A program made the position numbers and the translations under genes. The notes beneath the pieces were generated by a model. That model was not told the DNA's origin. It did no database searches and was given only the letters and a program-made list of their open reading frames with translations. Shown piece by piece: positions 28,661-29,828 of a DNA stretch of 64,000 nt (within the stretch, counting starts at the first letter, position 1; every line of letters begins with the position of its first letter). Source of the DNA: Escherichia coli (GTDB taxonomy: Bacteria > Pseudomonadota > Gammaproteobacteria > Enterobacterales > Enterobacteriaceae); assembly GCF_003790525.1 (NCBI RefSeq), contig NZ_CP033634.1; one strand, 5' to 3'.

Positions 28661-28724
28661 AGATAACAAGATAACAAGATAACAAGATAACAAGGTGTTA
28701 TCTTGTTATCTCAAGGTGTTATCT
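28661..28724. repeat. Iteron array (4 direct AGATAACA plus 3 inverted TGTTATCT); putative centromere site downstream of parB
   Basis: Read directly; same 8-mer family as the array at 29773-29828. Confidence 0.6.
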
Positions 28725-29021
28725 TTGTTTTACTTCTGCTATCAATCGTGATACCTCTGTTTTTGATAGTGTTTTAAGTGCTTCTACCGCCGCCCTGACA
28801 ACATCAGAACGATTCACTCTGCCTTTACCTGAAACCATCTCAGCCGTTATAAGGGCATCAATGTCTTTTAGGTTTTCTTCAAAAAAAGAAATACTCACTG
28901 GTTTTGCTTTGCTTACAACCGATGATTTATCTGATGACTTTTTGGTATTATCAAGGCCAGCCGTGCCACCGTTAATAAATGCTGCCTCGTCACGAGGTGA
29001 AGTGTTTGCTCTATTTCTCAC
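28719..29021 (-). CDS. Small centromere-binding partition protein (type Ib ParB/ParG-like); GTG start
   Basis: 100-aa ORF immediately downstream of, and overlapping, the parA stop; small basic protein as in type Ib loci. Confidence 0.6.
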   Translation of the reverse strand: MRNRANTSPRDEAAFINGGTAGLDNTKKSSDKSSVVSKAKPVSISFFEENLKDIDALITAEMVSGKGRVNRSDVVRAAVEALKTLSKTEVSRLIAEVKQR

Positions 29022-29644
29022 AGAATAACCTCTTTCACTAACGCTTCGATTTCTTGCTGGGCTTTATCATTTTGCGTTTCAAAAATTGTCATTGATTCGG
29101 CCCAAGCATCTCGATGTGCTTTACGATCACATACCCGGGAGTTTGCCAGATGCATTTCAGGGTAATCCTTAAGTACTTCAGCTGCCTCATTGGCTTCATT
29201 AACAAACATATTTGTGGGCGTCATGTTTAAAACGAGATATCCCCGAACATCCTCATTAAAATCTTTTGCTGCTGTAAAAACGGAGCATGTATGAGGCACA
29301 ACATCCAGGTCCATCTGAGATGGGCGCAAAGGAGAAATGAATACATCTGCGGCCATCAATCCACTACGCATTTCTGCGCTATCACGGCCAGCACAGTCTG
29401 CAATAACAAAATCATAGGATTTTTCGTGTTCCTTTAACATGGCTTTGATGTTACCTGTCGCGCCTGTAACCGGAATATGAGGGAGATCTTCAGGGCGATT
29501 GTTGTACCAGGTTAATACTGATTTCTGGTCATCTGCGTCGACAATAATCACTCTATTGCCTAGTGACATCAGATACGCAGCTATAGATACCGCCAGTGTA
29601 CTTTTACCTACCCCACCCTTTTGACTACCTAATACTATTATCAT
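29018..29644 (-). CDS. parA: ParA-family partition ATPase (small, type Ib)
   Basis: MIIVLGSQKGGVGKSTLAVSIAAYL... deviant Walker A; 208 aa. Confidence 0.85.
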   Translation of the reverse strand: MIIVLGSQKGGVGKSTLAVSIAAYLMSLGNRVIIVDADDQKSVLTWYNNRPEDLPHIPVTGATGNIKAMLKEHEKSYDFVIADCAGRDSAEMRSGLMAADVFISPLRPSQMDLDVVPHTCSVFTAAKDFNEDVRGYLVLNMTPTNMFVNEANEAAEVLKDYPEMHLANSRVCDRKAHRDAWAESMTIFETQNDKAQQEIEALVKEVIL

Positions 29645-29656
29645 TATAGCCTCATA

Positions 29657-29681
29657 TTAAGTTGTTAAGTTAACAACTTAA
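29657..29681. promoter_or_regulatory. 25-bp palindrome TTAAGTTGTTAA-G-TTAACAACTTAA upstream of parA; putative operator
   Basis: 12-bp arms; 13 bp upstream of the parA start. Confidence 0.4.
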
Positions 29682-29772
29682 TATTGCCATCTGAACGCGA
29701 ATCATGCAATTATTTTTGTTATATTAACAACTTAACAAGTTATTAAGTATTTGATTTATAGATTAATTAATA

Positions 29773-29828
29773 TAACAAGATAACAAGATAACAAGATAAC
29801 AAGATAACAAGATAACAAGATAACAATA
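29773..29828. repeat. Iteron array (7 tandem ATAACAAG units); putative centromere site upstream of parA
   Basis: Read directly. Confidence 0.65.

Follow-up and report, generated by a model that had tools for sequence, protein, structure and literature searches.

A probable pESBL-type ParABS partition cassette of type Ib, with arrays of one octamer on both sides of parAB, on an F-like multiresistance plasmid

The 64-kb window (the whole stretch of DNA that was analysed) very probably carries a plasmid partition cassette of the pESBL-type ParABS system, type Ib, a reading to which we give a probability of roughly 93%, the mechanism set out below included. Indeed, its parA-parB coding DNA is 100% identical to positions 49994-50919 of pESBL-EA11 (NC_018659.1), with no difference in either gene. 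In pESBL-EA11, this segment encodes ParB (WP_001245884.1) at 49994-50296 and ParA (WP_000587689.1) at 50293-50919, beside umuC, umuD and dinI, and the locus was classed as type Ib (PMC7602700); the initial annotation, which had proposed a partition locus of type Ib and two arrays of the same 8-mer, is thereby borne out. The sequence features that characterise the pESBL type are all present, namely (i) a ParA of 208 aa (O3K_25822 with its N-terminal extension), (ii) a ParB of 100 aa (O3K_25817) and (iii) octamer arrays flanking the operon upstream and downstream. Proteins, repeat and binding alike had been published in 2020, and nothing is new in principle; the prediction of a ribbon-helix-helix (RHH) fold, the family-wide occurrence of 8-bp arrays and the conserved palindrome are new here but incremental.

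Both genes are encoded on the minus strand. The ORF of parA (29018..29644) starts with ATG and encodes 208 aa, and that of parB (28719..29021), the equivalent of Hp7, starts with GTG and encodes 100 aa, in agreement with the ParA and the 100-aa partner described earlier; the parA stop codon and the parB start share 4 nt. A repeat-type centromere adjoining the operon is a feature of type Ib loci, and here arrays adjoin it on both sides. The upstream parS array (29772..29826) is composed of seven tandem octamers, reading ATAACAAG on the plus strand and CTTGTTAT gene-wise, which are perfect except for the outermost ones. The downstream parS array (28660..28724) is composed of four direct (28661-28693), two inverted (28696-28711) and one further inverted octamers, the last of which (28717-28724) covers the parB stop codon. 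The earlier count of seven tandem units upstream and of four direct plus three inverted units downstream thus holds. Tandem Repeats Finder (TRF) detected four period-8 arrays at the locus: 29772-29826 (unit ATAACAAG, 6.9 copies, 100% matches), 28660-28694 (unit AAGATAAC, 4.4 copies, 100% matches), 28696-28711 (unit TGTTATCT, inverted, 2.0 copies, 100% matches) and 29724-29742 (unit TTAACAAC, 2.4 copies, 90% matches).

The octamer is strongly concentrated at the locus. Across the 64-kb window, the exact string GATAACAA was counted 11 times, each time within one of the two arrays (11/11), compared with 1.7 +/- 1.3 times in the shuffled window, and none of 100 shuffles reached 11. The 14-mer TAACAAGATAACAA, which represents a double unit, has 13 matches with at most two mismatches against 0.33 expected, and 11 of these lie in or beside the locus. 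A full-text literature search for the repeat string returned no paper. Tandem, short, AT-rich direct repeats are superficially iteron-like, and the arrays could be taken for replication iterons, that is, for Rep-binding sites of an origin and not for centromeres. This interpretation is extremely improbable and was rejected: no rep gene adjoins the locus, and the unit is 8 bp long, while iterons are typically about 17-22 bp. Furthermore, the adjacent ParB binds the repeats (PMC7602700), and replication of the I-complex plasmids bearing the locus starts at an antisense-RNA-controlled RepA/RepZ replicon located elsewhere.

The centromere reading draws on a study of the IncI1 plasmid pESBL of E. 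coli O104:H4 (Genes 2020;11:1207; PMC7602700). In that study, Tn-seq revealed a region of ~1 kb that was depleted of insertions after growth without selection. O3K_25822 was recognised as ParA after restoration of a 31-aa N-terminal extension bearing the Walker A motif, O3K_25817 (Hp7) was described as a protein of 100 aa without known homology, and 'repetitive octamer nucleotides' with the consensus GATAACAA were reported on both the upstream and the downstream sides. The cloned region stabilised a mini-F deleted for sopABC, and foci of GFP-Hp7 (ParB) appeared only when the cells carried pESBL. In EMSA, ParB formed seven complexes with a probe of seven direct repeats (7-DR) and eight with the 8-BS probe, in which two arrays of four units oppose each other, and the affinity was comparable for both array types. 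Deletion of par alone left pESBL stable, conjugative re-transfer and toxin-antitoxin killing having masked the loss. The authors assigned the system to type Ib, calling it one with 'novel ParB and parS', and likened its dual arrays to those of pB171 and pSM19035. The gel-shift of the small protein and the plasmid stability assay that the initial annotation had put forward as checks were therefore already published on identical genes, with the predicted result, and the feature was already known. Beyond pESBL, a TraDIS study of pMS7163B found that parAB and the replicon are the only two units required for maintenance of that plasmid (PMC10286972). The functional evidence for the pESBL type comes from identical genes on these other plasmids.

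ParA is a short partition ATPase of type Ib. Proteins of this type have about 200-230 aa, no N-terminal DNA-binding domain and a deviant Walker A motif KGGxGK[ST]; the protein of the window has 208 aa and carries, in its N-terminus MIIVLGSQKGGVGKST, a deviant Walker A from residue 8 onwards (residues 8-15, QKGGVGKS, then T). It matches MipZ, AAA_31 and CbiA in Pfam, and the NCBIfam model ParA_partition over the whole length (2-205 of 203 positions) with 156 bits, below the equivalog cut-off of 180 bits. Among solved structures, ParF of TP228 (206 aa; 4dzz, E = 2e-14) is the closest relative, and the two proteins align end to end.

ParB gave no match in Pfam, NCBIfam or PDB by profile or phmmer sequence searches, and its RefSeq record (WP_001245884.1) is labelled 'hypothetical protein'. 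The 164 homologues returned by a database search all come from plasmids or metagenomes of Enterobacterales, and the best 120 of these 164 are 55-100% identical; most of them are unnamed, and a few are named 'ribbon-helix-helix domain-containing' or 'Par-like'. In an alignment of 29 members, two segments are (nearly) invariant: an N-terminal motif, MRNR..(R/K)DE..FI.GG, and a second segment, KAKPVS.S....NL..ID..I..E......R.NRSD... An AlphaFold2 model built from this alignment shows residues 1-40 as disordered, residues 41-47 as extended, and helices at 48-64, 71-82 and 87-98 (pLDDT 86-96). The C-terminal half is thus predicted to be an RHH domain, consistent with the type Ib feature of a small RHH protein, not HTH, encoded just 3' of parA, and ParB is predicted to bind DNA as an RHH dimer through the strand KAKPVSISF at about residues 38-46. 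ParB may tolerate several octamer variants in one locus (CTTGTTAT, CTTAGTAT, CTTACTAT), although the predicted recognition strand is invariant.

The proposed mechanism combines the published binding with what is general to the family of the ATPase. For identical proteins, ParB binds each 8-bp unit (GATAACAA) on both sides of the operon, the binding appears cooperative, and the partition complex was visible on the plasmid as a discrete focus (PMC7602700). By analogy with the ParA family, ParA-ATP dimers would coat the nucleoid. The ParB-parS complex would stimulate ATP hydrolysis by ParA, most likely via the conserved, arginine-rich N-terminal tail of ParB (MRNRANTPPRDE..FINGG), and the resulting ParA gradient would space the plasmid copies along the nucleoid, so that each daughter cell would receive one.

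Between the upstream array and parA, a sigma-70 promoter of parAB (29709..29738, minus strand) was predicted by a consensus scan. It comprises a -35 box TTGTTA (29738-29733), an 18-nt spacer and a -10 box AATAAT (29714-29709), with 9/12 consensus matches, and its -35 box lies ~35 bp from the upstream array. This call is a weak prediction, a consensus match at chance level: the scan found 5 sites in this AT-rich region against 4.6 expected in shuffles. Degenerate octamer-like units in 8-bp register (TTGTTATA TTAACAAC TTAACAAG TTATTAAG; 29716..29747) overlap the predicted -35 box, with a double octamer with 2 mismatches at 29725-29738, and they may be bound by ParB.

A perfect palindrome of 31 bp (15+1+15; 29654..29684) is also present, which reads gene-wise ATATTAAGTTGTTAA-C-TTAACAACTTAATAT and is built from a pair of octamer-like half-sites (TTAACAAC) in inverted orientation. 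Its end lies directly 5' of the RBS GAGG (29653-29650) and 9 nt ahead of the parA ATG. The palindrome had been reported as 25 bp long and near the promoter; its presence was found again, but its length is 31 bp, and it is located between the predicted -10 box and the RBS, outside the promoter itself. Every locus whose ParB is at least 77% identical has it at exactly the same position. The window, p5312.29, the K. pneumoniae plasmid pC and the diverged locus L012 have a perfect copy, those of pESBL and pMS7163B contain a single mismatch, and in L013 a double change keeps the symmetry. Read as RNA, the variation comprises one compensatory change (G-C to A-U pair), that of L013, and two wobble (U-G) variants, that of pESBL being U-G-compatible, among only five distinct sequences; it is no less compatible with an RNA stem than with a DNA palindrome, five sequences being too few to separate the two. 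The palindrome could be a low-affinity ParB operator made from two inverted variant octamers (TTAACAAC) or, alternatively, could act as an RNA hairpin of the 5'-UTR controlling parA translation or mRNA stability. If it behaves like TP228 ParG and pB171 ParB, the ParB of the window would repress the parAB promoter through the degenerate octamers at the -35 box, the 31-bp palindrome, or both. That the palindrome and these degenerate octamers together form a dedicated autoregulatory element, apart from both centromere arrays, has in our judgement about an even chance. The text of PMC7602700 mentions neither the palindrome, nor the promoter, nor autoregulation, nor the RHH fold.

The survey of the architecture covered six loci that have diverged (ParB identity 57-84%) besides four near-identical ones. 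Tandem arrays with a strict 8-bp period are present downstream of the operon in 6/6 diverged loci; upstream, tandem or degenerate octamer-like units are present in L012, L013, L004 and L006, and L005 and L014 have scattered units only. The octamer varies around CTT(G/A)(T/G/C)(T/C)AT: for example, L013 has nine copies of CTTAGTAT upstream and four of CTTGTTAT downstream, and L005 has ten copies of ATAACAAC followed by eight of ATAGTAAG. The copy number of the arrays is plastic, with 6-10 units upstream and 4-17 downstream, and perfect upstream arrays of 6-10 units are found in E. coli, Klebsiella and Salmonella lineages. The opposed downstream units are not conserved: the downstream units are direct only in L012, L013, L004 and L005; in L006 the direct array is preceded by one opposed GATAAC half-unit, and in L014 the array is followed by short opposed AAGAT units.

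This last observation bears on the downstream inverted repeats, which might serve mainly as an intrinsic terminator or a 3' stabilising hairpin of the par mRNA, their resemblance to a second centromere being secondary. A terminator scan indeed found a stem of 18 pairs with a 3-nt loop at 28713-28675, and the RNA fold of the downstream array has an energy of -29.4 kcal/mol (z = -8.3 versus shuffles). However, no more than 4 of the stem pairs are G-C, no proper U-run follows the stem, a comparable hairpin is possible in 0/6 diverged relatives, the lack of conservation of the opposed units speaks against any requirement for a hairpin or terminator, and a probe with opposed arrays was bound by ParB in vitro (PMC7602700). 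A role as a terminator only was rejected on these grounds, and a mainly terminator or hairpin role is considered improbable.

A division of labour between the two sides is a stronger candidate, although still a rather doubtful one: one array would be the true centromere, and the other array, or the promoter-proximal octamers with the palindrome, would be mainly a ParB operator. The closeness of the upstream array to the predicted -35 box and the overlap of that box by octamer-like units would fit such an arrangement, as would the pattern in the diverged relatives, in which the downstream repeats invariably form a clean tandem array and the upstream region is often degenerate (L004, L005, L006, L014). 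PMC7602700 also points out that transcription in pB171 is regulated by the upstream site, and leaves the role of the upstream array of pESBL to be determined. On the other hand, the EMSA of the same study argues against it, ParB having bound both array types with comparable affinity, and perfect upstream arrays of 6-10 units are retained, which is more than repression alone would seem to need. The reading in which both arrays are parS sites of one pESBL-type cassette is preferred.

The par cassette was found in 2235 of 72,556 PLSDB records, including 1289 from Klebsiella, 543 from Escherichia and 178 from Salmonella. It is a main inheritance device of I-complex and IncK/B/O/Z plasmids and of many IncF and Klebsiella plasmids, and many of the plasmids that bear it carry ESBL or other resistance genes. 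The plasmid of the window is an F-like multiresistance plasmid, near-identical to pGZM7d (NZ_CP129283.1, typed IncFIA), and its par cassette and umuC flank match IncK2/Z plasmids at 97-99%. The presence of the cassette would explain the stable keeping of this F-like multiresistance plasmid. Stating the identity with the pESBL locus is also useful for annotation, RefSeq labelling the ParB a 'hypothetical protein' and PMC10286972 calling identical systems unrelated.

Compared with known systems, the cassette is closest to those of pESBL and pMS7163B, with which, as with pGZM7d, it shares the pair WP_000587689.1 / WP_001245884.1. The pESBL locus has the same seven-unit upstream array (two positions differ), the same layout of the promoter region, the palindrome, a downstream array of the opposed type and the same location beside impB/umuC. 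It differs in (i) its downstream array, which is longer, with about 9+4+1 units (some being GATGACAA; about 14 in all) versus 4+2+1 (7 in all) in the window, (ii) six substitutions between the array and the RBS, one of which renders the palindrome perfect in the window, whereas that of pESBL has one mismatch, (iii) its flank, since the pESBL array abuts a Tn3 terminal repeat whereas the window retains a flank of the IncK/B/O type, the homology stopping at the outer edge of the downstream array, and (iv) its host replicon, which is IncI1 in pESBL versus F-like (typed IncFIA) in the window. The parAB locus of pMS7163B (IncB/O backbone, IncZ replicon) has identical ParA and ParB accessions and the order umuD, umuC, parA, parB, but its upstream array has nine units, including the variants CCTGTTAT and CTTGCTAT, and its downstream array five direct units. 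The par system of pMS7163B is described in PMC10286972 as unrelated to that of pESBL, which conflicts with the RefSeq records. Identity with the parAB of R64, implied for pESBL in PMC10286972, was considered and rejected: the ParA encoded near resD of R64 is 24% identical, its partner is unrelated, and the octamers are absent. R64 has ParM/ParR beside impB.

The delta/omega system of pSM19035, cited in PMC7602700 as a further type Ib system with dual arrays, resembles the present one in that a small RHH centromere-binding protein binds contiguous 7-bp repeats, direct and inverted, with one dimer per repeat and at several sites (PMC9499535). It differs in being a Firmicute system with heptad repeats instead of octamers, in which omega is also a global regulator, and its delta protein is larger than the ParA of the window (2oze, 298 aa; weak match, E = 7e-4). 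ParG of TP228 showed no sequence-level match to the ParB of the window, which places the locus outside the ParFGH family at this level of comparison. The parFGH system of TP228 is composed of the ATPase ParF, the RHH protein ParG and the centromere parH, and parH consists of degenerate 4-bp boxes, not of perfect octamers.

Finally, the likeness to par2 of pB171 suggested in the initial annotation was examined through a stand-in: the ParR of pB171 (PDB 2jd3) was used in tblastn, and among the plasmids with an identical ParR, 55989p was taken. In 55989p (L007), parM-parR lies back-to-back with genes for an ATPase of 214 aa and a protein of 91 aa, as in the pB171 double par locus; L004 (Pantoea, 71% ParB identity) likewise lies back-to-back with a ParM/ParR pair, and its ParR is homologous to that of pB171 (E = 1e-11). 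The par2 locus of this stand-in shares with the window a short ParA (33% identity along the whole protein), a small ParB, and repeats bound by ParB that flank the operon at two sites, one on each side. In contrast, its ParB has 91 aa and its alignment with that of the window is confined to 45 residues in the putative RHH region (18/45, 40%; pairwise E = 4e-4), and its cis regions contain neither the GATAACAA nor the TTGTTATC octamer, nor a perfect tandem array. No ParB of the pB171 type was found among the listed database homologues of the window ParB, all of which are at least 55% identical. Neither homology of ParB nor the repeat sequence of parC1/parC2 links the locus to the par2 family, so that the two-sided architecture of the proposed likeness stands and family membership does not. 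On the sequences compared, the resemblance to pB171 is one of class and architecture and not of family membership: a short ParA, a small ParB and repeats on both sides of the operon.

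Published work stated that pESBL carries an R64-type parAB and that the parAB of pMS7163B is unrelated to that of pESBL (PMC10286972). However, the RefSeq records encode an identical ParA (WP_000587689.1) and an identical ParB (WP_001245884.1) in pESBL-EA11 (NC_018659.1, 49994-50919) and in pMS7163B (NZ_CP026855.1, 4052-4977). Furthermore, no R64-type ParA is annotated in the RefSeq record of pESBL-EA11, and the octamer system is absent from R64 (NC_005014.1, 45383-48225). It therefore seems that the partition systems studied experimentally in pESBL and pMS7163B are a single system.

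The octamer arrays of this system differ in length. The downstream array comprises 4 direct units in the window and in p5312.29, 5 in pMS7163B, about 10 in pESBL and 11 in the Klebsiella pneumoniae plasmid pC, while 6 to 9 upstream units are present in the window and related plasmids. Copy number thus varies strongly among otherwise near-identical plasmids, which points to slippage or recombination as frequent events in the centromeres. Octamers also vary within single loci of the family, since two distinct variants are arrayed inside one locus in two diverged members, namely L013 (CTTAGTAT upstream, 803-876; CTTGTTAT downstream, 1806-1840) and L005 (ten copies of ATAACAAC, 2804-2885, then eight of ATAGTAAG, 2916-2976). 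Despite these variants, ParB keeps an invariant predicted DNA-reading strand, KAKPVSIS, throughout the family.

In pESBL-EA11, the downstream array passes straight into GGGGTCTGACGCTCAGTGGAACG... (about 170-295 of the extracted locus, L010), which we take to be the terminal inverted repeat of Tn3, and a TEM-1 gene lies just past this end. A transposon insertion may therefore delimit the experimentally studied array or have cut it short. In contrast to pESBL, the window and the IncK plasmids retain another flank beyond the downstream array, which is probably the native one. In the window, similarity to the IncK2 backbone begins at about 28509, identifying the outer flank of the par cassette as a recombination junction; a PTS/GntR/HAD cargo region lies to its left. 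A truncated serine resolvase, reduced to the C-terminal end of the catalytic domain and HTH_7, is encoded at 28269-28547 (minus strand).

Beside the par locus, comparison with pESBL and with p5312.29 (IncK2) shows that the 5' part of umuC/impB is split by a 4.9-kb insertion (31027-35957); in the BLAST alignment, its two flanks share an overlap of 6 bp. The near-identical plasmid pGZM7d is annotated in this insertion with genes for a 362-aa hypothetical protein, a PIN-domain protein and an AbiH-family protein, and with IS2. The insertion looks like a small defence-type cargo adjoining the par locus.

Lastly, a ParA/ParB pair of the pESBL-type family is encoded back-to-back with a ParM/ParR (StbA/StbB) pair on a Pantoea contig (LDSI01000014.1; L004, 84-2803), and this ParR is homologous to that of pB171 (PDB 2jd3, E = 1e-11). 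[quoted passage not shown]
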